A program made the translations under genes and the position numbers. Positions 1 through 25,704 of a DNA stretch of 41,314 bases are shown in pieces. Numbering within the stretch: position 1 is the stretch's first letter; each line of letters starts with the position of its first letter. The stretch lies in the IMG/VR virus record IMGVR_UViG_3300049182_000023, positions 1 to 41,314 of that record. The stretch is one strand, 5' to 3'. The DNA comes from a virus (Duplodnaviria > Caudoviricetes). The notes beneath the pieces were generated by a model. That model saw only the letters and a list, made by a program, of their open reading frames with translations. It was not told the origin of the DNA and made no database searches.

Positions 1-127
1 TATCCGCTGTCGATCTTGTCGAAGAAAAGCTCTTTGGCGTTCGCTGCGCCCGTCGATGGGCGAACGAAGACCGGACAATGTTCGTGATACCTGTTCACCA
101 TCTCGAACAGGTTTTGAGTCGCTTGAT
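1..127. repeat. Terminal direct repeat (identical to 41188-41314); circular-assembly overlap
   Basis: The first 127 nt (tatccgctgtcg...gtcgcttgat) recur exactly at the end, and the terL frame continues across the join. 127 is a common assembler k-mer length. Confidence 0.95.
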
Positions 128-428
128 CCTCGTGCGTCAGGATGAAGGTCCGGATGCCGAGCGTCCACGTAGTGCGGTGGTAGTACCTCGCTCCTACGTA
201 GGTTGAGCAACCCTATTGCCGCCCCTTCAGGATCAGCGCACGGACTCTTCCGGTCTTGGCCCGCTGTTCCTCAAGGCACGCATGAATGTGCTGCTGGGCC
301 TTGTTGAACTCGTACGGCAAGACCTTCGCGGTCTTGGTGCGGATCTTCAGGCAGTTACGAGCGTAGAACTCCAGGTCATCGTGAAGCCGTGCCCGTAGCT
401 CACTGGAGGCTGGCAAGCCACTGCTCAT
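1..428 (-). CDS. terL: Terminase large subunit, N-terminal part (continues across the origin to 40077); in-frame TAG at 213-215
   Basis: ATG 428. Reads ...RALILKGRQ*GCSTYVGARYYH..., a Walker A KGRQ(Q)G motif split by TAG. The frame stays open to position 1 and joins ORF 40839..41288. Confidence 0.93.
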
Positions 429-669
429 GGGTCAACGTCATCTCACCTGAGTGCTCGACCGCAGAGAGGCGGGCATGTACGAACGGGGCCGCCGCCTTGG
501 CTGCGTCAAGTCGCTTGGCCTCGTCTTGGCTGTCATCGCGCATGACAGCAAGCATGTATTCCAGCGGCGTGACGCCGGATGCGGCAACAGCCTCCACCTG
601 CTCCACCGTCTTCTTGTTCCGAGTGCCCGGCTTGCGGCCAGCGCCCTCGCGCTTACCTCCGCGAGCCAT
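400..669 (-). CDS. terS: Terminase small subunit (89 aa, no internal TAG)
   Basis: MARGGKREGAGRKPG...TPLEYMLAVMRD...RLDAAKAAAPFVHARL is a typical TerS pattern. Overlaps the terL start; TGA stop. Confidence 0.8.
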   Translation of the reverse strand: MARGGKREGAGRKPGTRNKKTVEQVEAVAASGVTPLEYMLAVMRDDSQDEAKRLDAAKAAAPFVHARLSAVEHSGEMTLTHEQWLASLQ

Positions 670-691
670 ATTGATTTCCGTTGAAATTATT

Positions 692-868
692 TCAGGCCGG
701 AGTCGGCACGAAGTTGGTCAGAAGGTAGAACACCATCGCGTCCCACGTCTCGAACGTGAGGCACAGCTCAATCGGCGCGTCCTTGTTCTCGCTCACGCCA
801 TAGCCGCCGTTGAGCGTCTTGGTGATCACGATCTCTTTGCCCTACAGAAAGGTGGGAATGCCTGCCAT
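692..868 (-). CDS. Hypothetical protein, 58 aa if TAG at 842-844 (codon 9) is read through
   Basis: AGGAG RBS, ATG 868, MAGIPTFL*GKEIVITKTLNGGY...PTPA then TGA 692-694. Fills the gap between its neighbours; absent from the ORF track. Confidence 0.7.
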
Positions 869-880
869 GTCGTCTCCTGT

Positions 881-1540
881 TTAAACCCGATTCTTGAATC
901 CGCGCCCGTCCGTGCCTGCTTGGCGATTGCCGAAGCCGCTATTGCCAGCGCCCACGCCAAACCCTGCCGCCACGGATCCGAAAGCATCGTTGCCATAGTT
1001 CGCAGCGCCATAGCCCGTGCCTGCGCCCACACCGTTATTGAAGTGGCCGCTGCCGAAGCCGAGGTTGCCGCCGATAGGACGGCCCTGCGGCGATCCGACG
1101 AACGCGAGGCCACTACCGGGGGCAAATGGGTTCATTGGCTGCCACGGAGCCTGCGTGTTCACTGGCGGCATCGTTGGCACTTCGGGCGTCATGCCAGGGG
1201 CCATCCCGATGTTAGGAACGCCAAGGCCGGTTTGCGGATTGAAGTGCTGCATGGTCAACGGACCAATGCCCGCTGCGTCGCCGCCCTAGCCGCTGAAGTG
1301 ATCAACGCCTTTGCCAATCAGCTTGCCAGCAGCTAGGCCGCTCATCGGGCCGCCGTAGAGGCCCGCGATTGCTCGCATCGGCAACCCAGCCATACCCAAC
1401 ATCACGGCCCTGTTGTTTAGCGTGCCATCCGGTGCGCGCTGCTGGCCCGGCAGAATGCCGTTGACGAACGCACGGCCAGCCCTCTGAAACAGGTTTCCCT
1501 TGTATCCACTGAGGAAGCCCTAGCCGCGTGGTTCAGCCAT
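881..1540 (-). CDS. Gly/Pro/Asn-rich hypothetical protein, 219 aa with TAG at 1520-1522 and 1286-1288
   Basis: GGAG RBS, ATG 1540, MAEPRG*GFLSGYKGNLFQ...HFSG*GGDAAG. In frame with ORF 881..1258; TAA stop. Confidence 0.75.
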
Positions 1541-1544
1541 CGAT

Positions 1545-1829
1545 CTAATCTCCAGGCCACCACTCGGCCGTTACTGTCTGTCCGGTTGCGTCGTCTATGT
1601 AGACCGCCACTTGGCAGCCATCGCAATTGGCGGGGGCAGTAGGAATCGAACCCACCTTGTCCGGGTTAGAGCCGGATGCCTCAACCGCTCGGCCATGCCC
1701 CATCATTTCTGCAAGCTCAGTGATCGTGGTCAGTCCGGTAACCCTTTTGCCGAACACCGCGTCCCAGTTGGATTCCACCAGCGCAGCGTTCTCACGCCTT
1801 CGTGCATGCCCCTTGCCGCCTGCTGTCAT
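1545..1829 (-). CDS. Hypothetical protein (94 aa) whose frame runs through the suppressor tRNA; ends in TAG
   Basis: ATG overlaps the upstream TAA (TAATG coupling). The N-terminus GGKGHARRR...SNWDAVFGK resembles small phage proteins. Confidence 0.5.
   Translation of the reverse strand: MTAGGKGHARRRENAALVESNWDAVFGKRVTGLTTITELAEMMGHGRAVEASGSNPDKVGSIPTAPANCDGCQVAVYIDDATGQTVTAEWWPGD
1628..1702 (-). tRNA. Amber suppressor tRNA, anticodon CUA, glutamine-type body
   Basis: TGGGGCA TG GCC GAGCGGTTGA GGC A TCCGG CTCTAAC CCGGA CAAG GTGGG TTCGATT CCTAC TGCCCCC G CCA forms a 75-nt cloverleaf with encoded CCA. Anticodon CTA at 1669-1667. U1, G2:C71, G3:C70, U35 and G73 match bacterial tRNA-Gln identity elements. 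Confidence 0.95.
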
Positions 1830-2044
1830 TACTTAGCAGTCCTGCGAGCGACTTCAGACGCGACGCGCCAGTCAAACCAAAGGCTCGGCAGGCGTTCGGC
1901 GATGGCGGCCAGCACTGCATCCGGCGCGTTCTGTTCCGCAAGAGGGAACATCAGCCAGCGTTCCTGGCCGTCTTCGTCCCAATAGGAGATGCGCATCACT
2001 GCGCGATAGCCGCCCGTGGCTAGTTGTGCTGCGGTGTCTATCAC
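1829..2044 (-). CDS. Hypothetical protein (71 aa)
   Basis: ORF in operon orientation with a TAA stop. Confidence 0.6.
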   Translation of the reverse strand: MIDTAAQLATGGYRAVMRISYWDEDGQERWLMFPLAEQNAPDAVLAAIAERLPSLWFDWRVASEVARRTAK

Positions 2045-2053
2045 TTCACTTCC

Positions 2054-2641
2054 TCAGCGCGCAATCGCCAAATCAAACTTGTTTGACTTCTTCTGGTTGA
2101 TCGAGGCTGGAATTACCCGAAGGTTTCCGGGCACGTGCAGTCCGCTAACCAACTTGCCGAACAGCGGCACGACGTGATCTACCTGATGTGGTATCCCGAG
2201 ACACCGACTAACTCGGCGGGCCGACTCATAGAAGCAGACCATCTCGCTGCGCGACTGCCACGCAGGCCGCCTATCGCGCCTTGCGGCCTGTCTGGCCGCA
2301 GCCATAGGCGCTAGACGATCCTTGTTCCGCTCCTTCCACTCTCGCGAAGTGGCATAGGCACGGAGCTTGTTCTCCTCGTACCACTGCCTGGCCTTCCGCC
2401 TAGCTCGCTCCCTGCCTCTTTCTGAAGATCGCCCGCGCAGGTTCATCTCACGCCGTTTTTCGGGGTTAGCGGCCCTCCATGCCCTGGCACCCTCTCGCAA
2501 GCACTCGCAACAACCACGATTGCTCACCATCCGATCTGACTTGTGCCCATTAGCACAAGGAACACCCGTGAAATACGTCTTCCTGCCCGCTGCTCGCGCA
2601 TCCTCTCGCGCAGTGATCTGATTCATCGGCGAAGTGAGCAC
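2054..2641 (-). CDS. HNH endonuclease
   Basis: TYFTGVPCANGH N-terminal motif; C-terminal HQVDHVVPL...SGLHVPGNLRVIPASINQKKSNK. The start may be ATG 2626. Confidence 0.85.
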   Translation of the reverse strand: MLTSPMNQITAREDARAAGRKTYFTGVPCANGHKSDRMVSNRGCCECLREGARAWRAANPEKRREMNLRGRSSERGRERARRKARQWYEENKLRAYATSREWKERNKDRLAPMAAARQAARRDRRPAWQSRSEMVCFYESARRVSRCLGIPHQVDHVVPLFGKLVSGLHVPGNLRVIPASINQKKSNKFDLAIAR

Positions 2642-2823
2642 TCCCCGTACAAACGGATAACCTCGCTCTGCCAGATGATCCAGCTATCAGCCGAATCGTC
2701 CTCTGGTGGGGCGGGCAACTCAGTGCACGGAGCGGATGGCGGAATTGGTTTCACGTACTTGGTCCCGCACGCTGTCAGTGACAGGGCGAGGCAAAGTGCA
2801 ATTGCTCGGGTTGTTGCGGACAA
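2623..2823 (-). CDS. Rz1: o-spanin (Rz1-like lipoprotein)
   Basis: Lipobox LSLTAC, Pro-rich body, overlaps the 3' end of the Rz-like gene in another frame. Confidence 0.75.
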   Translation of the reverse strand: MSATTRAIALCLALSLTACGTKYVKPIPPSAPCTELPAPPEDDSADSWIIWQSEVIRLYGECSLRR

Positions 2824-3061
2824 CGGTCACCACCTTTGGCGGCAGATTGGCGAGCTTGTCTGCCTTCGCCTGCGCCTTGTTGCGGGCCTTTATGGCTTGG
2901 TCGCGCTCATCCACTGCGCGGGCCATCAGCTTGTTGTCAGCCTTCAGGTTGGCGGCCTCTTCGCGAATACCGCCGATCCAGAAGAAAAACCCGCATATGG
3001 CGACGTAGATCAGGAGCTTGATCAGGTCCGCGTATGGCTTGGCGGGGTCTAGCTTGCTCAT
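2720..3061 (-). CDS. Rz: i-spanin (Rz-like)
   Basis: N-terminal TM helix, coiled coil, C-terminal CTLP motif; lies in the lysis cassette. Confidence 0.75.
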   Translation of the reverse strand: MSKLDPAKPYADLIKLLIYVAICGFFFWIGGIREEAANLKADNKLMARAVDERDQAIKARNKAQAKADKLANLPPKVVTVVRNNPSNCTLPRPVTDSVRDQVRETNSAIRSVH

Positions 3062-3843
3062 AGAAGCGATGCCACTCTCGCGCCCTTGCGCAGATTCTCT
3101 TTAGCCCAAATCGGCCGAAGGTTCGTCAACGCCCAAGCGCGACGTAGCTCGGGGTCATCGGCTCCAGTGATCGTGAATGCTGCTAACGGAACGATGTGGT
3201 CGATGTGCCACTCGCCCATGTTTTCCCAGCTCATACCCTTAAGGAACTGGCGCTCTAGGTGAGCGACCAGCTCTTCCACTGAGTAGTCCACAAATTCGCG
3301 CCACGACCTGCCAGCCTTGCGCCTAGTAAGAACCTTATGAAATCGCCCGCGCATTCTTTGGGTGAGCAGGTGCGGGATTGACTCCCGATACTTCTCGCGC
3401 GTGCGGCGCTTCCACTCAGCTCCACGCCCCGGGACCGCCTCCCGTATGCGCTTGTTCTTGTCTCGAAACTTCTGAGGATTGGCGGCATACGCTGCTCGGG
3501 CACGGGCGCGAGCCCGCTCCTTACGCTCACGATCTGCCACTTCAGCGTTTGCGGCCCTTGCGGCCGCCCTCGCCTCCTTGCGGACAGCGGCCTCTTGCCT
3601 AAGCTTTTCAGCGCGTCGGCTCACTGCTTGGTCGCGCAGGTCAGGGTTGTTCTGACGCCAACGCCTTGCATACAAGGCGGTGCAGGCTTTGCACTTTCTA
3701 TGCAGGCCATCCGGATAGCGCGAGTACTTCCCGTACTCAGTTAGCTGTTTGATTTCTCCACAATCGATGCAGGCCCGCATACGAACCTGAGATGCGGACT
3801 TCGGCGCAGAAATCAACGTTATCTGGCTATTACAAAAGTGCAT
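3058..3843 (-). CDS. HNH endonuclease
   Basis: N-terminal CxxC...CKAC; C-terminal GMSWENMGEWHIDHIVPL...TNLRPIWAKENLRKG. The start is uncertain (possibly ATG 3780). Confidence 0.85.
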   Translation of the reverse strand: MHFCNSQITLISAPKSASQVRMRACIDCGEIKQLTEYGKYSRYPDGLHRKCKACTALYARRWRQNNPDLRDQAVSRRAEKLRQEAAVRKEARAAARAANAEVADRERKERARARARAAYAANPQKFRDKNKRIREAVPGRGAEWKRRTREKYRESIPHLLTQRMRGRFHKVLTRRKAGRSWREFVDYSVEELVAHLERQFLKGMSWENMGEWHIDHIVPLAAFTITGADDPELRRAWALTNLRPIWAKENLRKGARVASLL

Positions 3844-4334
3844 CCGAATTGGTCGGTCATCGCACTCACAACCCCGATCAACTCACCCGCGTCATTGAAC
3901 AGACCAGACCCCGAATCGCCCGGACAAATAGTCCCGTCAACCGCAATTCCATCCTCGTAAACAGCGACCACCGTGCCGCTTCTTAGGACGTATGGAACGC
4001 CTCGTGGCTGGCCCCACCAGCGGACGTGATCGCCCGCCTTTGCCTTGCCCAGCTTCGCCCATGTACCAAAGCGGATGCCCGCCAGCTTCACGCGGAGGCG
4101 GTCAGGGCCAGTGGCGTGAGACGAAACGATTGCCACCATCTGCCCGTCAATACTCACCAGCGGGTGAGCGAGGCAATGTGCCGCCGTCTCGATCTCATCT
4201 ACTGCGACAGCCGTTGCGCTGCACACGCTCTGCGTCGTCTCCAGACGGAGCGCGAAGGATCGCGGGTCAACGGGCGGATGCGCTTCTGCACACCCTCCGA
4301 CCATCATGGCGAGAAGGAGTGCGAACAGGCGCAT
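3819..4334 (-). CDS. Trypsin-like (S1) serine protease, predicted lipoprotein
   Basis: Signal peptide ending VGGC; CSATAV, TAAHC (His) and GDSGSGLF (Ser) motifs. Confidence 0.8.
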   Translation of the reverse strand: MRLFALLLAMMVGGCAEAHPPVDPRSFALRLETTQSVCSATAVAVDEIETAAHCLAHPLVSIDGQMVAIVSSHATGPDRLRVKLAGIRFGTWAKLGKAKAGDHVRWWGQPRGVPYVLRSGTVVAVYEDGIAVDGTICPGDSGSGLFNDAGELIGVVSAMTDQFGCTFVIAR

Positions 4335-4338
4335 TGCT

Positions 4339-4515
4339 TTAAGTCCTCGTCACCGCTTGGTCAGCGACATTGCCCGCCAGATACAGGCCCACTACCCACG
4401 CGGACTGGCTAAGCCATTGCGCCGCGTCGATCTTTCCAATCGAGAAGAACACCAGCCCAGCAACGAACGCCGCACAAGCAATCAGGAACTTACGGCTGGC
4501 GTAGCGGGTGTCCAT
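4339..4515 (-). CDS. Small two-TM membrane protein, holin candidate (58 aa)
   Basis: MDTRYASRKFLIACAAFVAGLVFFSIG...AWVVGLYLAGNVAD. TAATG-coupled start; translated by hand. Confidence 0.6.
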   Translation of the reverse strand: MDTRYASRKFLIACAAFVAGLVFFSIGKIDAAQWLSQSAWVVGLYLAGNVADQAVTRT

Positions 4516-4634
4516 TACTTGCCGCGCCTGCGATCCTTAGCCGTCTTGCCGGTGCGAACCTGCTTGGTAGTGCGCGAGCCGGTGCGGATTTCCACGCTGC
4601 CGTCCCGCATGAACTTCTTGTACTGGTAAGTCAT
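4515..4634 (-). CDS. Small basic protein (39 aa)
   Basis: MTYQYKKFMRDGSVEIRTGSRTTKQVRTGKTAKDRRRGK; start and stop are coupled to both neighbours. Confidence 0.5.
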   Translation of the reverse strand: MTYQYKKFMRDGSVEIRTGSRTTKQVRTGKTAKDRRRGK

Positions 4635-4792
4635 CAGTCAGTCCCGCCAACCTTGTAGAACTCGGAATCGCCAATCCCCGCCCAGTCCTCGACGCGAATG
4701 GCGCGCACGAACAACTGGCTGGACACCCAAATCGCGGCATCACTGCCCTTGTGCAGCAGCCAAGCCAGAACGGTTGCGGTTAGAACCTTCAT
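4634..4792 (-). CDS. Hypothetical protein (52 aa)
   Basis: ATGA overlap with the endolysin stop; begins MKVLTATVLAWLL. Confidence 0.5.
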   Translation of the reverse strand: MKVLTATVLAWLLHKGSDAAIWVSSQLFVRAIRVEDWAGIGDSEFYKVGGTD

Positions 4793-5250
4793 GCCCTGCC
4801 CTCGCAGATGGCGCGCTCTGCGGAGCGGCGCTTGACCAGTCCACGCAACTTGATGCCCTTCGCGTAGACCCACTTGTCGAACTCAGCGCAGGCAGCCGGT
4901 AGCTCGCCCGCGTTCACCCGCTTGACCAGCGTCGAACCGCACGCCTTCGCCACGCCCACGTTGTAGGCAAACGAAAGCAGCGCAGCCGCCTCGTTCTGCT
5001 TGAGCGGCACCTTGATGCACTTATCCAGTTCAATCGCATGGCGGTACAGGGACGCCCCCAGTACTGCCATGCACTCGTCCCGACTGAAGCGGGCCTTCAT
5101 GCCCACCACGCCGCCGTCCGTCTCGCCTACACACGCCGTGGGAATGCCAACCGGATCTTGGTACGTGGTCAGCACCACGCCCTCATACACGGCCACGAAC
5201 GGGGCCGCCGCCAGCACTACTGCCAGCGATGCGACCTTGGCCTTGCTCAC
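4789..5250 (-). CDS. Endolysin, GH24 lysozyme, likely SAR type
   Basis: Hydrophobic N-terminus followed by YEG...YQDPVGIPT (E-x8-D-x5-T triad), SFAYNVG and GLVKRRSAE. Confidence 0.92.
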   Translation of the reverse strand: MSKAKVASLAVVLAAAPFVAVYEGVVLTTYQDPVGIPTACVGETDGGVVGMKARFSRDECMAVLGASLYRHAIELDKCIKVPLKQNEAAALLSFAYNVGVAKACGSTLVKRVNAGELPAACAEFDKWVYAKGIKLRGLVKRRSAERAICEGRA

Positions 5251-5456
5251 TTGTCGGCTTTCCCGTCTAACTTGCTTTCGATCCGATCAAGCTGCGCCAG
5301 GATTCGGTCCTCTAGACCGTCCACGCGCTTGTCCGTGGCTTCCTGCTTGGCGGTCTGCACGTTGATGCGGCCCTCAAGCCGGACCAGCCACACCACGCCA
5401 CCTAGACCAGCCAGTGCGAGCGTTACGCCTGCACCTAGCAAGCTTCCAAAGTCCAT
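5247..5456 (-). CDS. Single-TM coiled-coil protein, holin/antiholin candidate
   Basis: N-terminal TM plus charged coiled coil ending RIESKLDGKADK; directly upstream of the endolysin. Confidence 0.55.
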   Translation of the reverse strand: MDFGSLLGAGVTLALAGLGGVVWLVRLEGRINVQTAKQEATDKRVDGLEDRILAQLDRIESKLDGKADK

Positions 5457-5574
5457 ACAGCACGTTCCCTTCGTGTGCCCTATGGGCTGGATAAGAATTC
5501 CCTATAAAACAAGGGGTTTCTGCGCAAAACGGGCTCAAATCGGCCTGAATCGACCAACCTTGAATTCCCCTCGA

Positions 5575-5778
5575 TTAGTGCGTCCCCTCAGCGGGGTTGT
5601 GCGCCATGCGTAGCGCGATCTCCGCCATACCCTCAGCGAATGACCGCAGCCCGCTGGGAATGTCCAGCAAGGCCGATTGCTGCCCCTGCCGCGTCTCGTA
5701 GACCACGGCCACGGAAAACACTTCCGGGTCGCCGTCTGCCTCAGCGAGTCGAGCGAGCCTTTCGCTTAGGCGCGTCAC
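5575..5778 (-). CDS. Hypothetical protein (67 aa)
   Basis: GTGA-coupled ORF with a TAA stop. Confidence 0.6.
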   Translation of the reverse strand: MTRLSERLARLAEADGDPEVFSVAVVYETRQGQQSALLDIPSGLRSFAEGMAEIALRMAHNPAEGTH

Positions 5779-6356
5779 AGCAGCTTTTCCAACTCCAACC
5801 GGAGTGGCGCTGAAGTCTTGGTGAAATCAGTGTCGAACGTCGGGTTTGCGGCGGCCCGAAGGCTCGCAATCTCCGACATGACCGTTCCCGGCCTGTACCA
5901 CTTCCGCTTATCTGCGATGACGTTGTGGAAGTGGATGTAAGCGTTTGCGGTTCGGGTGTACTTCTCCAGATCAACCGGAGCATCTAGCTCGCGGATCATC
6001 CGAATGGCGCGACGCTCGCAGTCCGCCTCTAACTCCTGCACGGTACGGACGGCCTCGCGCGGGTTCTTGATCGCCTTACCGTCGATCCAATCCCACATGC
6101 CTTCCTTGACGCTACGCCAAACGGGCGCGCCTTCAATCCACTGCGTCAGGTGCGCGTACTCATGAATCAGGACGCCAACCCAAGCATCTTCGGATCGGCC
6201 CGTCGCCACAGCGAGCCTGCGGGTCTGATCGCAGAAGAAGCCGCCGCACTTGAATCCGTCGCCGGAGTCCACCGTTGCTTCCGGAGACAGCAGGACCGAC
6301 ACCCCAAACCGCCAAGCGCGCCGGGTTAGCTCCCAAACAACGTCATCGGCGGTCAT
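5775..6356 (-). CDS. Putative zinc metallopeptidase (HEXXH)
   Basis: VLIHEYAHLTQW motif and downstream ELEADCE. Confidence 0.65.
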   Translation of the reverse strand: MTADDVVWELTRRAWRFGVSVLLSPEATVDSGDGFKCGGFFCDQTRRLAVATGRSEDAWVGVLIHEYAHLTQWIEGAPVWRSVKEGMWDWIDGKAIKNPREAVRTVQELEADCERRAIRMIRELDAPVDLEKYTRTANAYIHFHNVIADKRKWYRPGTVMSEIASLRAAANPTFDTDFTKTSAPLRLELEKLL

Positions 6357-6598
6357 TCGCGGAACAGCCCAAGCGCTTCCAGCTTCATGTCGCGGGCAAT
6401 CTCTTCAGCCAGCGCAGCCATTTCCAGTGCGTTGGCGCTGCACTGCGCCTTCGGCGGGTCGCCGTCCAGCATCACCCAATAGCCAAATCCGGCCTTCGCC
6501 GAATTGACCAGCGCTTCAGCCACTTTCTCAGCCTGCGCCACAACGTCAGCCACCACCGGCTCACCCTTGCCCACTACGGTCAGGGTTGGCTTGGTCAT
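6353..6598 (-). CDS. Hypothetical protein
   Basis: GGAG RBS before ATG 6598 (MTKPTLTVV); ATGA overlap with the next gene. Confidence 0.6.
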   Translation of the reverse strand: MTKPTLTVVGKGEPVVADVVAQAEKVAEALVNSAKAGFGYWVMLDGDPPKAQCSANALEMAALAEEIARDMKLEALGLFRE

Positions 6599-6609
6599 GG
6601 CGGGCTCCA

Positions 6610-6640
6610 AAGGAAAATGCCCCGCGATAATCAGCGGGGC
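6610..6640 (-). terminator. Intrinsic terminator (tR'-like position)
   Basis: GCCCCGC-TGATTATC-GCGGGGC followed by ATTTTCCTTT on the minus strand, just after the Q-like gene. Confidence 0.6.
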
Positions 6641-6695
6641 GGGTAACGGTGCGTTGGCACTTTTCGCCACCCTCTTAAGAAGGATGGCATGGAAT

Positions 6696-7217
6696 TTATG
6701 CCGCCATGTCGGCTAAAGCCGGTGCCTCAGTAACTCGTTTCAGCCGCGTTGCCCAAAGTAGCTGCGACTCGAACTGCTGCATCTGCACGGTGGCGGCACC
6801 AGCCACGAAATTGCGGATCTTCTTGTACGCCTGCCACCGGCACTTCAGCTGTGTGGCGCGAGTCTCCAGTCCGGGCACGAAGTTAGGCCCCAGGATCGCC
6901 ATGCGCAGCCCGTCACGCGACGCCTGTCGCCCCCACTCTGGACGGTAGCTCTCAACATAGGTGCGCCGCCTCTCGCCAATGGCGGGCTTCAGCGTGGCTG
7001 CTAGCTCGCCTAAGCCTTCGGCCCATTCGATCAACTCGCGCTGGAAGAACGGAACGTCCGCTACCCACGTAATCCACAGCTCATAACCGATGTGGTTATC
7101 CGGCAAGGTCGAACACGCGACCGCTGCCGTGTAGTGAGCCGCGTCCGGCAACTGACGCCGCCCGAAGGCCGCGTAGTAGCCGCGCAGGTCGTCAATGTCC
7201 CAAGTCTCTTTACCCAC
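6696..7217 (-). CDS. Putative late regulator (Q-like antiterminator by position)
   Basis: 173 aa; last gene of the early/middle operon, followed by an intergenic gap with a terminator and then late genes. Function is inferred from synteny only. Confidence 0.45.
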   Translation of the reverse strand: MGKETWDIDDLRGYYAAFGRRQLPDAAHYTAAVACSTLPDNHIGYELWITWVADVPFFQRELIEWAEGLGELAATLKPAIGERRRTYVESYRPEWGRQASRDGLRMAILGPNFVPGLETRATQLKCRWQAYKKIRNFVAGAATVQMQQFESQLLWATRLKRVTEAPALADMAA

Positions 7218-7272
7218 GGCTCACCCCTGAAGTGACGCGGCAGTACATAGCCGCCGCGCCTTGTTGTTCCGC

Positions 7273-8121
7273 TTACTTGACCTGAATGAACGGCACTGCG
7301 CCGCCTGCGTTTGTGGTCGGCAGGACGCCGTTCCACTTCTCCACCGCCGTCATCTGTACGATTTCCGGATTGGCCGTGATGGCGCTGGCCTTGATGCGAA
7401 TGGCGTTTGCTTCGGCTTCGGACCGGATGCGCATGGATTCCGCCTCACCCTGCGCCGTTGCAATCTGGATCTTCGCGTCAGCTTCGGCCTTGCGGACTTG
7501 GTTCTCCGCCTGCTGCGCCTGCTGCGTCATCTGAATCTTTGCGTTGATCGACTGGACCACCGTCGGCGGCAACCGCAGTTCGCCCACCCAATAGACCTTC
7601 TCCACGATGATTCCCAGCGGCGACACTTGCGCCATCACATCGTTCTGAACTCGCTCGACCAGCTTTGCCTTGCCTGCGCCGTACACCGATTCCACAGGCA
7701 TGCTGCTGGCGTTCTTCACCAGCGAATCGCGAACCATGTTGCGCAGGTAGATATCCGTGATCTCGTCCACACCCTTTCGGTACTTCTGGAATACCAGCGC
7801 GGCCTTACTCGGATCGATACGGTAGGAGATGCCAACGTCCGCCGTGACGGACAGTCCTTCGACGGTCTGGAAGCCAAGCTCCTCGTTGGCGCAGTCACCC
7901 TCCTGGCATTCCTTTGTCCACGTGTAGTTCTGCGTGAACGTCGGGAACAGGTACAGCTCTTCGTTGATGCCGATCCAATAGCGACCGGGGCCAAGCTCCT
8001 CCACGTCCACGCCTTTGCTGCCACCTAGCAAGTACGCCTTGATGCCAACATTGCCAGCGGGCACCTTTGAACAGGCGGTCATCATCAGCAGGGCCAAGCC
8101 TGCAAGCAGATACTTTTTCAT
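7273..8121 (-). CDS. SPFH/band-7 (prohibitin-like) lipoprotein
   Basis: MKKYLLAGLALLMMTAC lipobox, VPAGNVGI, GPGRYW, Ala/Glu coiled coil, EKWNGVLP. Confidence 0.88.
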   Translation of the reverse strand: MKKYLLAGLALLMMTACSKVPAGNVGIKAYLLGGSKGVDVEELGPGRYWIGINEELYLFPTFTQNYTWTKECQEGDCANEELGFQTVEGLSVTADVGISYRIDPSKAALVFQKYRKGVDEITDIYLRNMVRDSLVKNASSMPVESVYGAGKAKLVERVQNDVMAQVSPLGIIVEKVYWVGELRLPPTVVQSINAKIQMTQQAQQAENQVRKAEADAKIQIATAQGEAESMRIRSEAEANAIRIKASAITANPEIVQMTAVEKWNGVLPTTNAGGAVPFIQVK

Positions 8122-8282
8122 TGCGGATTCCTTTTGAGGATTCGATAAGTGCCCCAAGCTCCGAGACAGGCGAGCGCGAGGCCAGCGATTGGCAGCTCAT
8201 AGCTGCGATGCGAGATCAGCGCCGGACCAATGAAGGCCACGAACGCAAGCCAGAACACGACCAGAACAGAAATGCGTTTCAC
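8118..8282 (-). CDS. Small two-TM membrane protein
   Basis: Hydrophobic 54-aa ORF coupled to the SPFH gene. Confidence 0.6.
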   Translation of the reverse strand: MKRISVLVVFWLAFVAFIGPALISHRSYELPIAGLALACLGAWGTYRILKRNPQ

Positions 8283-8557
8283 GTCCACGCGAGCAAACTC
8301 CCAAACCAAACAACCGGGGCCATCACAGCTAGAAGCCCCACATGCACAGCTACGTGCGCCCGCTCATGCAGGCATAGCCATGCGGCCAGAACCATTGCCT
8401 TCGACGCCGCGAACCAGCCGACTCCCCACTGTTCGATAACCCAGCGCATCATCGGATTGGATTCGGCATCAGCGCCAAGCGTCATCACGAACGAGATCGT
8501 TGCGGCAGCGTCCATCAGCCAGAGCGATGCGAAGATGGCGGCGAGGAATGTCTTCAC
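8279..8557 (-). CDS. Membrane protein (DUF5658-like)
   Basis: DAAATI...GADAESNPMMRW motif and multiple TM segments. Confidence 0.6.
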   Translation of the reverse strand: MKTFLAAIFASLWLMDAAATISFVMTLGADAESNPMMRWVIEQWGVGWFAASKAMVLAAWLCLHERAHVAVHVGLLAVMAPVVWFGSLLAWT

Positions 8558-8645
8558 GCCCCACCTCCAACCGTCTGCTGCGCCCAATACCCCAACCACG
8601 CCGCGCCACTAATCGCTAGGCCGATGCAGAACCATTTGAGGCGGG

Positions 8646-8933
8646 TCATGGGTCCATCTCCAGCGCCGGTTCGTCATTGCGTTCCGAGCGCCACTTGTTG
8701 AATCGCACCGTCCCGTAAGTGCCTACCCAGCCACCCAGCACAGCAGCCACCAAAAGGCGGTTGTCGTGGATGTATGAGATGGACGCGAACGCGCCGCACG
8801 CCATGATTGCCGCGCTCCACGAGGCGGCCGCGAGCGCCTTGCCTTCGTTGACCTTGGCGATGTAGAGCGTCCAGCAGGTATCAACCGCGACTAGCGAGAA
8901 GAACACCAACGCGAATTGCACGGGGAATGTCAT
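8646..8933 (-). CDS. Membrane protein (95 aa)
   Basis: Three hydrophobic segments, GGWVGTY. Confidence 0.65.
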   Translation of the reverse strand: MTFPVQFALVFFSLVAVDTCWTLYIAKVNEGKALAAASWSAAIMACGAFASISYIHDNRLLVAAVLGGWVGTYGTVRFNKWRSERNDEPALEMDP

Positions 8934-9745
8934 ACCGCCCTCGCCAATGAGAACCGCTGCTTTGCGTTGCGGCGATTTCGCTGCAACCAGCGGGCAACCG
9001 TCGTACCCGCAAACGTGCGGCTCAGGTAATCAATGCTTAGTGGCATCTCGCAGAACTGGCCGTTCTTGACCTCGTTCAACACCACTACGCCCCGCCAGTG
9101 CTTGTTCGCCGCGCCTTTGTACGGCTCGTCATGGAGGTAGCAGCTACCGGCCACCACGCCGTATGCAATGTCGCCAGTGGCGTACTGGAAGTCGCCGCGC
9201 TTTAGCCCTTGTTCGTGGCCTTGCACGAAGCTGCCGCCGATCTTGGCAATGCGGTTGGCGATGGTTCCGCCAATCGGCTTGCCAGTGTTGGGCTGCGCGA
9301 AGAAGTGGGCGTAGCGCACACCGTCCACGACAACGATTCCAGGCGCTCCGTCCTGATAGGGGACTATCTCCCAATCCGCGTCATCCAGCAGATGCAGGCC
9401 AATCAGCCCCTCTAGCTCGGGATGCCGGTCAACGTAGTTGTTGAGTCGCTGGTCATGGTTTCCGCGCAGCTTGATCTTGCGCTTAGGGCGGAACTTACCC
9501 ATGCCCTCACGTAACAGGCGCTCGCCTTCGTTGTAGGCGTCAATGTCAGCCTTGAGGCGACGGCCTTCCTTCGCCAGCGTGCCCGGCTCTGTGTGCCGGC
9601 TGATCGACTCAAAGTCGGGACCGTCGCCAAGATCGATCACTACATCCGGCTCATAGCGGGCGATGGCTTGACCAACCCAGCGGTTATGTTCCAGCGGAAC
9701 GTCTGGCTTGTTCTGACGATCAGGCAAAACGAAGTGACGGCGCAT
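8930..9745 (-). CDS. Calcineurin-like metallophosphoesterase
   Basis: LPDRQ, DLGDGPD, GNHDQR and QGHEQ motifs. Confidence 0.85.
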   Translation of the reverse strand: MRRHFVLPDRQNKPDVPLEHNRWVGQAIARYEPDVVIDLGDGPDFESISRHTEPGTLAKEGRRLKADIDAYNEGERLLREGMGKFRPKRKIKLRGNHDQRLNNYVDRHPELEGLIGLHLLDDADWEIVPYQDGAPGIVVVDGVRYAHFFAQPNTGKPIGGTIANRIAKIGGSFVQGHEQGLKRGDFQYATGDIAYGVVAGSCYLHDEPYKGAANKHWRGVVVLNEVKNGQFCEMPLSIDYLSRTFAGTTVARWLQRNRRNAKQRFSLARAV

Positions 9746-11365: not shown

Positions 11366-11610
11366 TCCCCACCCTCCAGCGCGGCGCGGCCTGCGGGGGT
11401 TACGGTGAATGTGTCGGATGCGCGGCGGTTCCACTCAGTAGTTGCCGTTTTCTCCCAGCCTTCGACCACCTCTCCGCCAGAAGACTTACGGAACAACGGG
11501 CCGTGCATTTCACAGTCGCCGCAATGGACCGCTCCCCACCGGTAATTCCCAACGTCGTCAAAGTAGAGATCAGAACCGCCACAGAACGGACATTCACGCA
11601 GCTCGTTCAT
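11362..11610 (-). CDS. Lar-family restriction alleviation protein
   Basis: LRECPFCGG...VHCGDC...WNRRA. Confidence 0.75.
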   Translation of the reverse strand: MNELRECPFCGGSDLYFDDVGNYRWGAVHCGDCEMHGPLFRKSSGGEVVEGWEKTATTEWNRRASDTFTVTPAGRAALEGGE

Positions 11611-11923
11611 AACTAACCTCCTCCAACCCAACCCGAACCATCGGGCGCAACTGGCCGGGACTAACCGGTCCGCGCCACTTCTTCGCACGCACGTCTAGCA
11701 GCGCCTCACGCAACTGACGCGGCCACAACTCCACCGGCTGCGGCTTGCGCACCGTGCGATCACGGCGGCGACCCATCTTCGTCCGCTCGGCCATGTATTC
11801 GTTACGGCATGGCTTGCAGTAACTCTGAACCTGCATCCGGCCGTTTGGCTTCAGGTAGTAGCTGAAGCAGTCCAGCGGCTTTGCCGTTTCGCATCGGGAA
11901 CACATCCGCATGCCTTCCATCAC
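11594..11923 (-). CDS. Zn-finger hypothetical protein
   Basis: CSRC...YCKPC. Confidence 0.6.
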   Translation of the reverse strand: MMEGMRMCSRCETAKPLDCFSYYLKPNGRMQVQSYCKPCRNEYMAERTKMGRRRDRTVRKPQPVELWPRQLREALLDVRAKKWRGPVSPGQLRPMVRVGLEEVSYERAA

Positions 11924-15791: not shown

Positions 15792-16046
15792 TCAGCCGCT
15801 CTTGTTTGCGTTCACTTGCCAGCCAATCACCTCGCCTTTCTCGTTGCGGGTGAACTCTGTGTCGGGCAGCAGGTCTTCGGCGCGGAACAACCCGCCGCTT
15901 ACCTGTTCTGCACGGATGACGTGCTGCGGAAGCAGTGCGCGCTTACCACTCGCGATCAGGGAGACAGTCGAGTCGCTGAGACCCAGCACCTCAGCGGCTT
16001 GCCGCTGGCTGCCTGCCCACGCGATGAAGTCTTGGAAACCGGTCAT
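15792..16046 (-). CDS. cro: Cro-like repressor
   Basis: GSQRQAAEVLGLSDSTVSLIASG HTH; divergent from cI. Confidence 0.75.
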   Translation of the reverse strand: MTGFQDFIAWAGSQRQAAEVLGLSDSTVSLIASGKRALLPQHVIRAEQVSGGLFRAEDLLPDTEFTRNEKGEVIGWQVNANKSG

Positions 16047-16057
16047 GGGGTTTTGCG

Positions 16058-16108
16058 CTTTACGGAAAGTCAAGCGCGACTCTGGACCATGCTTTGCGCA
16101 TTGTCAAG
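16058..16108. promoter_or_regulatory. Two 17-bp operators upstream of cro
   Basis: CTTTACGGAAAGTCAAG (16058-16074) and CTTTGCGCATTGTCAAG (16092-16108); each contains a TTGAC -35-like box on the minus strand. Confidence 0.7.
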
Positions 16109-16189
16109 TCAAGTTTTTCGTAAACGGTTCGCAAACGAGCGATCCCGTTACGCTTTCCGTCTCACCTTTTGACGAAGCCTTCACCCACT

Positions 16190-16504
16190 ATGTCAATCGT
16201 CGCCCCCAAGCTCAGGGCCGCCCTAGAAAGGGCTGGCATCACAGCGCGTGACCTGGCGGGCAGAATCGATATGGACGAGTCCACAGTGAGCTTGTGGCTG
16301 TCCGGGGGGAGGACGCCACGCATGAAGAACTTGCAAAAGGTCGCCGATGCTCTGGGCATTGAGCTAGCTACGCTCTGGGCGGGACCAGAGGCGACACCGG
16401 CCACAGAAGTACAGGCCGCGATGATTGACGAAATGGGGCAGTTGTCCCCAGCCCAGCAGGAGGCTTTGCTGGCTATCGCAAGGACCATGAGGACGCCCAC
16501 CTAA
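16190..16504 (+). CDS. cI: CI-like XRE repressor without S24 peptidase domain
   Basis: GITARDLAGRIDMDESTVSLWLSGGRTP HTH; about 104 aa. Confidence 0.75.
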   Translation: MSIVAPKLRAALERAGITARDLAGRIDMDESTVSLWLSGGRTPRMKNLQKVADALGIELATLWAGPEATPATEVQAAMIDEMGQLSPAQQEALLAIARTMRTPT

Positions 16505-16716: not shown

Positions 16717-18427
16717 ATGCCTCCTCTGATCGACGCAACCGTCTCCTTCTTCGGCGAGCCTGAGCGCCGCCACGCCCTCACCCGCCTAGCCGACTGGCTA
16801 AACGACCTCGCAGTGCAGCTGTTCGACCTCGCTGGCCGGATTCGTGGGGGTGCGCGATGAGTGTGCATGTACTGGCCGTGATGGATGACGCCGCAGACAC
16901 CCTTGACGACAAGGGTCGTGGTCGCCTCGCGACTGATCTGTGGACAGCTAAGGCGGCCGTGGCGGAATTGCTCGAAGCAGCGCAAGACGTGAACAACGGC
17001 ATGTGCGCAATGAGCGTCGTCGAAACGCGACTGCTCGTCCGGCTGCGCAAGGCAATTGATCGCGTGCAGGGAGGTGCGTAATGGCCGCCCAACTCCGCCC
17101 CCGCTCCTACTACGAAGGCGAGTTCGACAGCTATGGCGCAGACGACATGCCGCCCGAGCGCCTGCCTGCTGGCTTTGCGATGGACGAGGACGTGGAAGCG
17201 CTCGCCGCTATCGATCCGATTCTTGCGCTGCCGCACCTGCGCCGCACCGCACTTACGCGCGGATTCCCTCGCGACAACATGTTCTACGGCGAGATTCGCC
17301 AGCGCGTTGTGTCGCCGCTGGACCGGAGGCTGCCATGAGCCTGCACCTGTACGACAAGGCGATGGCGGACTTCAACCGCATGTTCCGCAAGCAGGAAGCA
17401 GAGAACGGCATCTGTAGCGATGACGACGTGTGCGAAGAAGACCGCGAGCCGCCCGTCCTGGTCGGCATGTTCGACCCGATCCCCATGCCTCGCGATCCGT
17501 ATGGGTGCGAGAACCCGGTTAGCCAGGAGGACTCGGAATGACGAAGTTCACTCCAGGCCCGTGGACAGCCGTGGGGACCATTGTCCTTTCGCCAGATACA
17601 TGCGGCGAGGTTGGTTGCTGCGGAATCGCCGAATGCTTCCACGGTTCGCAGCCAGAGATTGCGGAAGCGAATGCACAGCTGATAGCCGCCGCGCCGGATT
17701 TGCTGGAGGCGCTTCGCAATCTCTCAGCCACCGTGGACGCAGCAATTCTTTCCGGTGACTGGAAAGTGGATGGCGCTTGCGATCCGGACATGGACATCAA
17801 AGCAGCACGCGCCGCAATAGCCAAAGCCACGGGAGGCCAGTGATGGACTGGAACCTATCAGACAGCGCCTATCGCAAGCACTTGGACGAGTCGCCGTTCA
17901 ACTTCTTCATCGGCTGCATTGCGGTGTGCGCAGCGGTTGGGATTTTCGTCTACGCGGTGATGCGCATGTTTGGCTGGGGGTTGGCATGAACAAGTTCCTG
18001 GACTTCATCTTCAGCGCTAGCGGCAACGTGCTGGTGGGAGTGGTGATCTTCGTTTGGTGCATTTTTGATCTGTCGAGGGGCGTATGAGCAACGAGAACGT
18101 AAAGGTTCCTTTGACCATCGAGCTACGCGCTGGCGATGTGCTTGTGGCTGTGTCGGAAAACGTTGGCCTGTGGGGCGGCGTTCTCGTGGAAATCTTGAAG
18201 GAGATTCCGCCGCACGAAATGGGGCTCAGTGGAGAGCAGGAATGAACAAGTTCCTAGTCTCCCGCCTAGCCACGACGCGAGTCTTGCCAATGTTCGCCGC
18301 AGCAGTGGAGAGCCAGCGGAATCGCGAGCTGTACATCGAGCAATCGCGCCGCACCGTTGCAGGCGTTCGCGCCGAGTTCCCGAAGCCCCCGTCATCCGCA
18401 ATAGACCTCATGGAGGCCGCCAAGTGA
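16717..18427 (+). other. Chain of about 9 small coupled early hypothetical genes
   Basis: Consecutive ATGA/TAATG/TGATG-coupled ORFs: 16717-16860, 16857-17081, 17081-17338, 17335-17541, 17538-17843 (FTPGPW...ANAQLIAAAPDLLEAL), 17843-17989, 17986-18087, 18084-18245, 18242-18427. Confidence 0.65.
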
Positions 18428-18921
18428 TCGGTGCGCCCAAAAACGATCGCGCCAAGATGCTTGCGTACCTGGATCTGAAATCTGTTCCGGTGCCAGAGAG
18501 CGGATGCTGGCTGTGGATCGGTACCACACGTTCTGACGGTTACCCGCGCGCCTACTGCACGGGCGATGGCAAGGCCACTTGCGCGCACAGATTGTCCTAC
18601 TGGCTGCACACGGGCGTTCAACCGGGCTCAATGTTTGTTTGCCACAAATGCGATACGCCGACATGCATTAACCCCGACCACCTCTTTCTAGGCACCCCGA
18701 GCGAAAACATGCGTGATATGGCTCGGAAGGGTCGCGCAAAGTGCGGCTCGGCCAAGCTGACAGAGCAAGACATTCTGGAGATCAGAGCGTCAAACGACGA
18801 TAGCCACACCCTAGCCAAAAGACATGGGGTTTGCTTCCAACACGTCAGACGGATCGTAGCGGGAGACCTCTGGAAATTTGTGTCATCACCCGCTAGTGCG
18901 GGTGGCGGGGCAAACCGGTGA
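18424..18921 (+). CDS. HNH endonuclease
   Basis: SGCWLWIG, AHRLSY, VCHKCDTPTCINPDHLFLGT...NMRDM. Confidence 0.88.
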   Translation: MIGAPKNDRAKMLAYLDLKSVPVPESGCWLWIGTTRSDGYPRAYCTGDGKATCAHRLSYWLHTGVQPGSMFVCHKCDTPTCINPDHLFLGTPSENMRDMARKGRAKCGSAKLTEQDILEIRASNDDSHTLAKRHGVCFQHVRRIVAGDLWKFVSSPASAGGGANR

Positions 18922-24326: not shown

Positions 24327-24661
24327 GCGCTGCCGAGAAACTGCCGGAGATGTATACCGAGGACGAGGCGGCGGCTTATTTCAAGAAGTCCGTCATCACC
24401 CTACGACGCTGGCGCAAAGCTGGGTTGATTGGCAGCAAGAAAATCGGCCGCGATGTTTTCTTCACCGCAGAACATATCCGCGCCTACCTGGAGTCCGTTG
24501 AATGTCCCGCATCGTCTACCGCATCACCGACGAGTACGCCATCGTTGAACGAAAGGGGTCCGCGAACCTCTACCTTGAGTGGCGGGAGAAAGGACAGAAG
24601 GTCGGGCGCTCTACGGGCAGTAGCAGCCTTGACGACGCCAAGCGACGCGCACGAGAACTAA
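24323..24661 (+). CDS. xis: Excisionase-like HTH protein
   Basis: YTEDEAAAYFKKSVITLRRWRKAG...KIGRDVFF; overlaps the integrase start. Confidence 0.7.
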   Translation: MSAAEKLPEMYTEDEAAAYFKKSVITLRRWRKAGLIGSKKIGRDVFFTAEHIRAYLESVECPASSTASPTSTPSLNERGPRTSTLSGGRKDRRSGALRAVAALTTPSDAHEN

Positions 24662-25704
24662 TCCTTGAGCTGGCCGAGATCAAGGACGCGGAGCCTGCGG
24701 AAGCGGGCCTGCTGGCGATCCTTGAGCGGTACTACCTGAAACGGGGGAAGACGCTCCCGAGCGCATCCACGGCGAAGCGGTCGCTTGCTCTGTGGAAGGA
24801 ACACTGGGGCGATGAAAAGACCGTCGCAGACCTGACTGTGAAGGCACTGGAAGCCTTCATCGAATGGTTGCGAGGCAAGGGATATGCAGACGGCTACGTG
24901 CGCCGCGTCGTGGGATTCGGACGCACGGCCACGAACTGGGCCTGGAAGCAAGGCGAGCTGCGGCAGGTGCCCTTCATCGAACTACCGCAGGGTGGCGAGT
25001 CCTACCCGCACAAGGCGACGCGCCAGCAGTTGGTAATGCTGCTCAACACGCCGCTGCCTGAGCACGTTTGGACCTACATCCTGATCCGACTGAACACAGG
25101 TTGCCGTGGCGATGCCGCGCTGGACCTTCAGCCTTTCCAAGTCGATTGGGAGGACAACGCCATCAGGCTCAACCCAGCAGGCCGCAGGCAGACCAAGAAG
25201 CGTCGCCCCGTGGTGCCGCTGACCAAGACGCTCGCCGCCCACCTGAAGACGCTACAAGGCGTGGAGTACTACGCCGGGTGGCATGGCAAGCGCACCCGTT
25301 CGCTAAAGACAACGTGGCGGAAGATCCGGACGAAGGCGAAGCTCCCGGCATGGTTCGCCCCGAAGGTGCTGCGACACACAGTGGCTTCAGAGCTGCGCAG
25401 GCGCGGCGTCCCGAAATGGGACGTGGCTGGCTTGCTCGGGCACGAGGAGCACTCTGCATCGGCCACTACGGGCGACTACGCAAAGTTCGACGGAGAGAAG
25501 GTACGTAAGGCGCTGGACGCCTGGATGGGCGACTTGGCGAAGGAGGTTCCGGCCCTAGTCGGGGTCACCTCGGGGTCAGTCAGGCGCACAAAGAAAAACG
25601 GCGCAACCCCTGAGAGCCGCGCCGTTCCTAGTTTACAAGTGGTGGGCGGTACAGGGTTCGAACCTGTGACCCCTACCATGTCAAGGTCACGGAAGATCAA
25701 GTGA
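24502..25704 (+). CDS. int: Tyrosine integrase
   Basis: TGCRG (R), KVLRHT, LLGH and TTGDYA (Y) catalytic motifs; 400 aa. Confidence 0.93.
   Translation: MSRIVYRITDEYAIVERKGSANLYLEWREKGQKVGRSTGSSSLDDAKRRARELILELAEIKDAEPAEAGLLAILERYYLKRGKTLPSASTAKRSLALWKEHWGDEKTVADLTVKALEAFIEWLRGKGYADGYVRRVVGFGRTATNWAWKQGELRQVPFIELPQGGESYPHKATRQQLVMLLNTPLPEHVWTYILIRLNTGCRGDAALDLQPFQVDWEDNAIRLNPAGRRQTKKRRPVVPLTKTLAAHLKTLQGVEYYAGWHGKRTRSLKTTWRKIRTKAKLPAWFAPKVLRHTVASELRRRGVPKWDVAGLLGHEEHSASATTGDYAKFDGEKVRKALDAWMGDLAKEVPALVGVTSGSVRRTKKNGATPESRAVPSLQVVGGTGFEPVTPTMSRSRKIK

Follow-up and report, generated by a model that had tools for sequence, protein, structure and literature searches.

Phages and prophages that read TAG as glutamine (code 15) have been described among the crAss-like, Lak, Garnet and Topaz groups (bioRxiv 10.1101/2021.08.26.457843; PMC9523058; PMC11210395). 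In the accessible parts of this literature, code-15 phages with a Sup-CTA tRNA, recoded prophages and the placement of this tRNA before the late genes are already documented for gut phages, and the mechanism and purpose of flipping the code in a standard-code host are treated as not understood. The DNA analysed here, the complete 41,314-nucleotide IMG/VR record IMGVR_UViG_3300049182_000023 (hereafter, the window), shares with these phages the in-frame TAGs in late genes, the standard-code early genes and integrase, the Sup-CTA tRNA, a standard-code host and integrated forms. With the block-coded crAss-like genomes, whose late strand opens at its 5' end with a Sup-CTA tRNA according to the available text (bioRxiv 10.1101/2022.06.29.495998), it has in common a suppressor tRNA located before the recoded late genes and early genes that are nearly indifferent to the code; charging by a host synthetase has been proposed for that group. 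The selC gene nested in selB of Alphaproteobacteria is the closest parallel in gene architecture: according to the portions of the source at hand (PMC8124441), a whole recoding tRNA gene lies in a sense ORF with the frame kept, the stop of this ORF overlaps the next start, and competition between processing and translation has been proposed. Finally, theta ribozymes, to judge from the sections available (bioRxiv 10.1101/2023.06.13.544163), are likewise conserved elements in the 3' trailer of a Sup-CTA tRNA with a proposed role in the control of code switching. The analysis reported below makes it likely, on balance, that the window encodes a glutamine-charged tRNA that serves as the late switch for a set of TAG locks and is embedded in a translated ORF that helps to time the switch.

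The 41-kb genome of the window is that of a temperate podophage: a 127-nt terminal repeat (1–127, copy at 41188–41314) closes it into a circle of 41,187 bp with a GC content of about 61%. Its gene content comprises DnaB-type replication, an integrase, genes resembling cI and cro, a lysis region and, for the particle, a podovirus-like head-tail module in which the capsid is of the SU10 type. The tyrosine integrase (24502–25704, plus strand) is in the standard code, and two divergent HTH genes, cro-like (16046–15792, minus strand) and cI-like (16169–16504, plus strand), lie within 15792–16504. An attP-like core on the plus strand (25640–25687) is identical to the 3' part of a Lysobacteraceae tRNA-Val(GAC); the integrase ORF passes through it (25640–25704, antisense to the tRNA-Val), so that integration would change the integrase C-terminus. 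The lysis region (2623–5456, minus strand), in which the called genes contain no in-frame TAG, comprises an endolysin (4789–5250), i-spanin-like (2720–3061) and o-spanin-like lipoprotein (about 2623–2823) genes, holin-like small genes, a protease-like gene and HNH genes, the spanin and holin labels being assigned by eye. The gene of the secreted-type trypsin-like protease (3819–4334) is kept in the lysis region of most relatives, several of which have a TAG in it. Genes of the HNH or endonuclease VII-like type are found at 2054–2641, 3058–3843, 11594–11923 and 18229–18921, two of them within the lysis region. A scan of positions 1–9000 for sigma-70 promoters yielded none, and no late promoter or Q-like regulator was identified in the window.

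The tRNA gene occupies positions 1628–1702 of the minus strand, with the CUA anticodon at 1669–1667. It had been described previously as a complete 75-nt cloverleaf with an encoded CCA and as the only complete tRNA of the window, and both statements are corroborated. At default stringency, ARAGORN returns this single tRNA, with the anticodon CUA, in the whole window (the accompanying label “Pyl” is merely its name for CUA), and the extra calls obtained with relaxed settings are all implausible among those listed. The cloverleaf, with its CCA end, is the sole Rfam match in the window (RF00005, 49.2 bits against a gathering score of 29, E = 1.1e-7). Its acceptor end is of the GlnRS type, with an unpaired U1.C72, G2:C71, G3:C70 and G73; further features are G10:C25, U35, A37, the anticodon loop CUCUAAC, G31:C39, a variable region of 4 nt and G15.G48. 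A CTG or TTG anticodon, which would have contradicted the assignment, appears in neither of two sequencing runs at the level of contigs: one contig, from a run that may itself be the source of the window, spans 600–2100 at a depth of 83, the other, of 151 nt, spans 1592–1742, and each has zero differences from the window. Also in accord with the preliminary description, PHROG and Pfam scans, covering most of the called ORFs per library, matched no release factor or synthetase gene. Base pairing of the flanks with the tRNA was considered as a conserved feature and rejected given that native flanks rank like shuffled ones over 24 loci (mean rank 0.53 upstream and 0.63 downstream); the upstream flank of the window is able to pair with the anticodon arm (z of -0.49).

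The morphogenesis genes follow the tRNA on the minus strand. The first TAG-interrupted gene (881–1540, Gly-rich, not assigned to a family, TAG at codons 7 and 85) begins at 1540, 87 nt past the CCA, and is followed by a gene for 58 amino acids (692–868, TAG at codon 9), the terminase small subunit identified with PHROG (400–669, no TAG) and the terminase large subunit, whose 512 codons run over the circular junction (128–428, with TAG codon 72 at 215–213, and 40077–41314, with TAG codons 259 and 415). Further along are the portal (37754–39892, three TAGs), the scaffold (36328–37293, one TAG), the major capsid protein (SU10_MCP, 35389–36324, TAG at codons 51 and 145) and adaptor-, nozzle-, ejection- and tail-fibre-like genes (26127–35340, 12 TAGs in 9 of 11 genes). 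Among the 81 genes called in the window with our own simple gene finder, the 21 located after the tRNA contain 25 in-frame TAGs, distributed over 15 genes (the small terminase subunit is one of the six without), and none of them ends in TAG; the other 60 genes contain no in-frame TAG and three end in TAG, one of these being the ORF over the tRNA. Thus, TAG accounts for 25 of the 317 Gln-type codons after the tRNA and for none of the 249 elsewhere (P = 3.5e-7), whereas the difference in TAG stops (0/21 after and 3/60 before the tRNA) is not significant (P = 0.56). TAG is the only codon that interrupts genes of the window; the PHROG matches to terminase, portal, scaffold and capsid extend across the TAGs, and the homologs are continuous. 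Profile decoding over the recoded relatives assigns TAG a log-likelihood of +87.7 for Q and -56.5 for the next best residue, E, with 11 of 11 control codons decoded correctly, and Q is the residue opposite TAG 26 times in conserved columns, every other residue at most 4 times. At both capsid TAGs (codons 51 and 145), all 13 close relatives have CAG. Several TAGs, by contrast, align with other residues in distant homologs: portal codon 49 faces E or D in 35 of 38 and codon 229 faces H in 37 of 42. On balance, we infer that TAG stands for Gln.

The sequencing runs that best match the window come from soil and rhizosphere metagenomes. The 48-nt tRNA-Val(GAC) core is present in 32 of 41 genomes of the family of Lysobacter koreensis (31 of 40 if one unpublished genome is excluded); of 81 genomes sampled across the class, 2 have it, and these belong to the family sample as well. 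In view of this spread, the host is likely a member of the Lysobacteraceae. The nearest relative is a prophage of L. koreensis CCUG 55491 (contig NZ_JBHTIH010000002.1, about 576.7–615.4 kb), with a 92% identical capsid and a tRNA identical to that of the window in 70 of 75 nucleotides. It carries an integrase and 19 TAGs in 14 of the 23 genes after the tRNA, is bounded by a 14-bp repeat at tRNA-Ser(UGA) and, at about 38.7 kb, looks intact by its sequence. Two extra genes, of 134 amino acids with one TAG and of 423 amino acids, lie between its portal and scaffold (G001:C2, about 590,300–592,000). The bacterial genome encodes glnS, prfA and rho, and 5 of 22 long ORFs flanking the prophage end in TAG by a crude filter; the standard code thus holds for L. 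koreensis, the host of the closest prophage, the window's own host being a predicted one. Among 50,697 records, there is no cultured phage above 46% capsid identity. In the GTDB family sample, the recoded form, as judged by the capsid, was detected in 1 of 400 genomes, that of L. koreensis (five have a capsid match; one genome is unscored), and in the order sample, L. koreensis is the only one of 401 genomes with the pattern of the peptide described below.

A capsid search of IMG/VR yields 56 loci, of which 13 are 71–85% identical to the window and 11 of these 13 contain in-frame TAGs. A CUA tRNA is present in all eight recoded relatives that cover the region (in seven according to ARAGORN; that of G008 is divergent and was recognized from a weak Rfam match and by eye), three other recoded relatives are fragments without the region, and two standard-code relatives that span it have neither the tRNA nor the peptide. 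The tRNA of the window had been placed after the lysis cassette and directly before the first TAG-interrupted gene, which is accurate for the window; as a strict code boundary, this arrangement does not extend to the relatives, some of which have TAGs upstream of the tRNA, including in holin-like, endolysin-region and protease-like genes. In two holin-like genes (G014, 21824–22012; L009:903–1100), the TAG comes right after the membrane segment, unlike in the window.

The tRNA gene does not stand alone: it lies in sense within an ORF that was overlooked in the preliminary description (1533–1829, minus strand) and encodes 94 amino acids up to a TAG at 1547–1545 or, by readthrough, 98 up to a TGA at 1535–1533 that overlaps the start of the next gene by 8 nt. 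The N-terminal peptide, KGxxxR...NWDxxF (1752–1814, minus strand), belongs to a small ORF that is widespread in phages and can also stand by itself, e.g., in the standard-code L011. The C-terminal peptide, YIDDATGQTVTAEWWPGD (1548–1601, minus strand), is in frame with the tRNA and is followed by the TAG and then by the TGA at the next start; the motif shared by the loci is YIDDATGxxVxExWWP, and DNA searches find it only behind CUA tRNA or tRNA-like genes. A search with a pattern of this peptide alone retrieved 7 loci from IMG/VR and 17 from metagenomes, and a CUA tRNA or tRNA-like gene precedes the peptide in 24 of 24 (21 according to ARAGORN, 3 by eye). A strict pattern for the tRNA body has no match in IMG/VR because the bodies vary. 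Of 29 loci, 23 have a gap of 2 nt between CCA and the tyrosine codon; in the others it measures 14, 26, 122 (two loci with a single sequence), 176 or 314 nt, always in frame; i.e., inserts of 12, 24, 120, 174 and 312 nt all keep the frame. Across the tRNA, TAA or TGA occurs in the peptide frame in 0 of 25 loci and in the other two frames in 10 and 22, the latter figure being partly forced by the UAA in the anticodon loop. Among codons that differ by one base in the ten loci retrieved independently of the peptide pattern, the difference is synonymous in 234 cases and non-synonymous in 78; the pS/pN values over all 25 loci (0.73/0.20) were set aside in favor of this unbiased set because the search pattern allowed wobble. 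Taken together, these features of the sequence indicate that the spanning ORF is very probably translated.

No family was found for the spanning ORF at E<0.01 in Pfam or PHROG, the predicted fold gave no usable model (pLDDT 55.5, pTM 0.22), and a search of the ESM Atlas produced no usable match. In three lineages (G002, L009/L118/L120 and L005), no convincing in-frame start was found by eye. A profile search retrieves 333 protein homologs; of the best 120, 47 are full length, 68 end in the motif before WWP, at stops that may be TAG, and 5 lack the motif. At the DNA level, TAG occupies motif codon 9 in 14 of 25 loci, including L. koreensis. In the window, the TAG comes after WWPGD, so that the motif is complete without suppression and the peptide is not amber-gated. 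The C-terminus of an ejection protein of the window (29446–29490) reads YIDPDDG and resembles the hairpin-like part of the motif, a similarity that is probably generic.

What the end peptide does is a matter for tentative ranking. We favor, without much confidence, a helper of suppression made in trans over a signal acting in cis and over an unrelated protein; such a helper, being often itself amber-gated, would provide positive feedback. A more specific and speculative version is a portable cassette of phages of soil Xanthomonadales, in which the end peptide would be made only after the tRNA reads its TAG and would act on the translation machinery, e.g., against RF1 or in support of tRNA maturation or charging; the cassette would then reinforce its own switching and open the TAG locks, one in each morphogenesis gene.

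Among the alternatives, the one that survives best, although we consider it unlikely, is that the end peptide is a nascent-chain pause or arrest signal acting in cis and that the ORF is an amber-sensing leader: a ribosome that has passed the TAG would reach WWP and sit over, or open, the start of the first morphogenesis gene. In its favor, the next, out-of-frame ATG lies 10–13 nt past the proline codon of WWP in 13 of 25 loci, the stop falls between TG and WWP, where many of the homologs end, and the stop of the ORF is usually near the next start, which it overlaps in the window and in L. koreensis. However, the spacing is 16–29 nt in 9 of the 25 loci, there is no such ATG within 45 nt in the remaining 3, and some homologs run tens of residues past WWP. 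The conserved part consists of a hairpin-like YIDxxTG segment together with WWP, and we know of no arrest motif that matches this combination.

It is rather improbable that TAG encodes Gln as proposed while the spanning ORF merely codes for a small late protein of the ordinary kind, its overlap with the tRNA a frozen accident and its TAG just one more lock. This explanation draws on the wide occurrence of the N-terminal peptide, which stands alone in 69 of 118 new representatives and in a few other phages reads, by eye, into ordinary tRNA genes, so that crossing a tRNA may be merely tolerated; in addition, the linker takes foreign inserts, including a YhfG-like piece, and two distinct recoded tRNA loci (L013/L014 and L140/L141) lack the end peptide. 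The end peptide itself behaves differently. It invariably follows a CUA tRNA or tRNA-like gene in the pattern matches, is absent from standard-code relatives that retain the N-terminal peptide or the neighboring genes, and moves with the tRNA between unrelated head-tail modules: the cassette also fronts capsid modules unrelated to that of the window, which by eye are P22-like (L181, L182) and siphovirus-like (L175), all with TAGs.

Several variants of the locus deserve mention in their own right. In P0038, P0043 and others, the stretch from the N-terminal peptide to the tRNA contains an in-frame insert, a YhfG-like segment (PF10832); in P0041, P0050, P0059 and P0071, the ORF seems, by eye, to cross two tandem tRNA genes in frame. 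A small ORF with the pattern GKGSxPRP...NWDxIF is often located just before ordinary phage tRNAs and reads into them (P0176, P0177, P0180 and P0193). In G014 (L014:4569 onward), there is no YIDD peptide; instead, the last A of the CCA starts the ATG of a short ORF that contains two TAGs and overlaps the next start.

The TAGs themselves look, from their placement, as if they were selected as locks, with one per gene, a 5' bias and a purine at +4. In the window, 15 of the 21 genes are hit, where TAGs scattered at random over the Gln codons would hit 10.5 (P = 0.004); TAG stands at the first Gln codon of 10 genes, with 1.7 expected, and a purine follows 24 of the 25 TAGs (P = 1e-4). A purine after UAG favors suppression. 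Pooling eight genomes (the window, the L. koreensis prophage, G002, G007, G008, L003, L005 and L009; genes of at least 80 codons; G004, G014, L010, L012 and L013 left out) gives 71 of 123 genes hit against 50.5 expected, a median TAG position of 0.14 against 0.55, and a purine at +4 in 82 of 92 cases, with T never found there; these genomes are related and share sites, so that pooled P values overstate their independence. It is quite likely that the TAGs form a late translational gate on morphogenesis that keeps leaky transcripts harmless until the tRNA builds up. The opposing explanation, a neutral ratchet in which the tRNA was gained for another reason, such as disturbing the termination of the host or a rival phage, and TAGs drifted into the later-expressed genes without a regulatory role, appears improbable. 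It is compatible with the turnover of TAG sites, which differ among relatives, with the capsid tree (43 rows), which requires at least three changes of code state, gains or losses, and with TAG already being the rarest stop (3 of the 81 window genes). Drift, however, predicts neither the one-per-gene spread nor the placement at the first Gln codon, the 5' bias or the bias to a purine at +4; selection against costly late truncation could account for some of the 5' bias, though not for the surplus of genes with a TAG.

The amino acid attached to the tRNA can be judged from its identity elements. In the accessible parts of the sources, the E. coli Gln set is given as U1-A72, G2-C71, G3-C70, G10, Y34, U35, G36, A37, U38 and G73 (PMC1483225), and U35, G73, G2:C71, G3:C70 and a weak first pair steer GlnRS to CUA tRNAs (PMC9976931, PMC1483225). 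The window tRNA has 7 of the 10 elements of this set (G2-C71, G3-C70, G10, Y34, U35, A37 and G73) and, in place of U1-A72, G36 and U38, has U1.C72, A36 and C38, the last of which is also found in the tRNA-Gln(CUG) of L. koreensis. The earlier observation that U35, G2:C71, G3:C70, G73 and a weak U:C pair at 1:72 mark the tRNA for GlnRS is confirmed in the window and largely generalizes to 25 distinct loci, in which the tRNA bodies vary widely, from 71 to 104 nt: G73 is kept in all 25, a script finds G2:C71 together with an unpaired 1:72 in 24 of them and inspection by eye adds the remaining one, L133, and the 3:70 pair is G:C in 19 loci but C:G in 6. In several relatives G10 is absent, and some loops have C33, A33 or C37. 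Conservation of G73, G2:C71 and the unpaired 1:72 across such divergent bodies makes charging by the host GlnRS likely and, with the E. coli identity rules as a guide, the unpaired 1:72 and G73 likely offset the loss of G36. The convergence of 25 tRNA bodies on one identity set fits GlnRS charging, and the tRNA is thus predicted with high confidence to act as a GlnRS-charged suppressor.

The suggestion that the body is that of a supE-type tRNA-Gln is borne out by the Gln-like acceptor end and anticodon loop (the latter differs by one base from that of the host tRNA-Gln(CUG)), whereas the body as a whole gives no clear sign of such a descent: compared with 45 L. koreensis tRNAs, a set that does not contain tRNA-Trp, the window body best matches Ser(UGA) (55 of 75 positions), followed by Gln(UUG) (53), Leu(CAA) (52) and Gln(CUG) (51). 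With supE/glnX and the Gln-mischarged suppressors, as far as the available descriptions go, the phage tRNAs share U35, G73, G2:C71, G3:C70 and a weak first pair. The supE suppressor is a point mutant of the host tRNA-Gln; the phage tRNAs, in contrast, comprise many unrelated bodies with a fully unpaired 1:72. The tRNA-Pyl, with its paired G1:C72, was rejected as a relative: 1:72 is unpaired here, the L. koreensis genome contains nothing above the cut-off for PylRS, and the phage scans detected none. Suppressor tRNAs of 71–72 nt with C8 and a reduced D arm are found in L124, L132, L135, L138, L139, L181, L005 and L008, and two or more of these short forms escaped ARAGORN; those of L125, L127, L133 and L134, at 90–104 nt, have long variable regions and the same Gln-type acceptor end.

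Insertion of a different residue (Lys, Ser or Pyl), or of a mixture, is very improbable. Although LysRS, too, reads U35, the A73 that the Lys identity set needs is absent and G31-C39 disfavors Lys (PMC1483225; PMC9976931, available parts); although the variable arm is long or the D arm odd in some relatives, and although the body of the window tRNA is about as similar to Ser(UGA) as it is to Gln, this tRNA lacks a long arm; and decoding prefers Q over E by 144 log units, with K and S lower still. Sequencing errors or the decay of a dying prophage, for which nothing speaks besides stops in essential genes, can be practically dismissed because TAG alone interrupts the genes, the second run agrees at the anticodon, and the pattern recurs in most of the close relatives and in an isolate genome.

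Returning to the late switch that we favor, the following sequence of events can be envisaged. The host's own synthetase would charge the tRNA with glutamine. In the lysogen or early in infection, RF1 would end the translation of leaky late transcripts at an early TAG in the majority of the morphogenesis genes, resulting in short dead products and probably in Rho polarity on the untranslated remainder; early nonsense codons are known to cause such polarity. After induction, with the late transcript abundant, the tRNA would be cut out, accumulate and outcompete RF1, whereupon the purine-followed TAGs would be read through. Each transcript could serve either for translation across the tRNA or for cutting to release it, so that the spanning ORF would tie the supply of tRNA to ribosome traffic; the ORF would also hand ribosomes on to the first morphogenesis gene. 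The earlier proposal that this single RNA is the key to the internal TAGs is therefore sound insofar as TAG stands for Gln and the tRNA and recoding co-occur (8/8 against 0/2), whereas the word “single” probably leaves something out, given that the tRNA is embedded in a conserved ORF that has a conserved peptide of its own.

If so, this would be a minimal code-switch system, in which the scans matched neither a release factor nor a synthetase of the phage, with statistical evidence for TAGs placed as locks and with some 25 natural suppressor tRNA bodies converging on one identity set; the tRNA-in-ORF cassette is a pointer to a possible new helper of suppression, and the prophage of L. koreensis CCUG 55491 would make code switching testable in the laboratory. 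In the accessible literature, we found no report of recoded Lysobacter or Xanthomonadales phages, although the supplementary genome tables of Cook, Borges and Pfennig could list members, nor, in the main texts, of one-lock-per-gene TAG placement or of a tRNA-in-ORF cassette; in the text of Borges et al. (bioRxiv 10.1101/2021.08.26.457843), as far as available, the strings “Proteobacteria”, “N-termin” and “overlap” do not occur.

The differences from the described systems are as follows. The code-15 gut phages, in the accessible accounts, have Bacteroidetes and Firmicutes hosts, are tied to low GC and have the lysis genes as the most recoded ones; the window has 61% GC, comes from soil, likely has a Lysobacteraceae host and is represented by a prophage in a cultured strain, so that it is a high-GC case that does not fit the low-GC route to recoding. 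Only a small fraction of its Gln-type codons after the tRNA are TAG (the 25 of 317 mentioned above), unlike in those phages, and the preferential recoding of lysis genes in the Borges model is not seen in the window, although TAGs are present in such genes of some relatives. In the block-coded crAss-like genomes, on the available evidence, the code switch follows the strand switch; in the window, both sides of the switch are on the same strand, and a conserved ORF encloses the tRNA. Theta ribozymes are described as self-cleaving RNAs, whereas the trailer of the window type is conserved as protein code and varies like coding sequence; there is no Rfam match after the window tRNA, Rfam 15 being a release that may not hold a theta model. 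The nesting is of the selB-selC type, with a whole tRNA, a conserved frame and a stop near the next start. In selB-selC, however, the ORF is the elongation factor of the tRNA itself, and no conserved motif is seen after the tRNA-derived tail in the parts of the source at hand (PMC8124441); here, the ORF is not SelB but a phage protein of 50–150 amino acids with a conserved post-tRNA peptide that is often cut by the tRNA's own codon. Thus, the core claim, a suppressor tRNA that decodes internal TAGs, stands and is of a known kind; the new elements are the lock pattern, the nested amber-gated ORF and the cultured lysogen.
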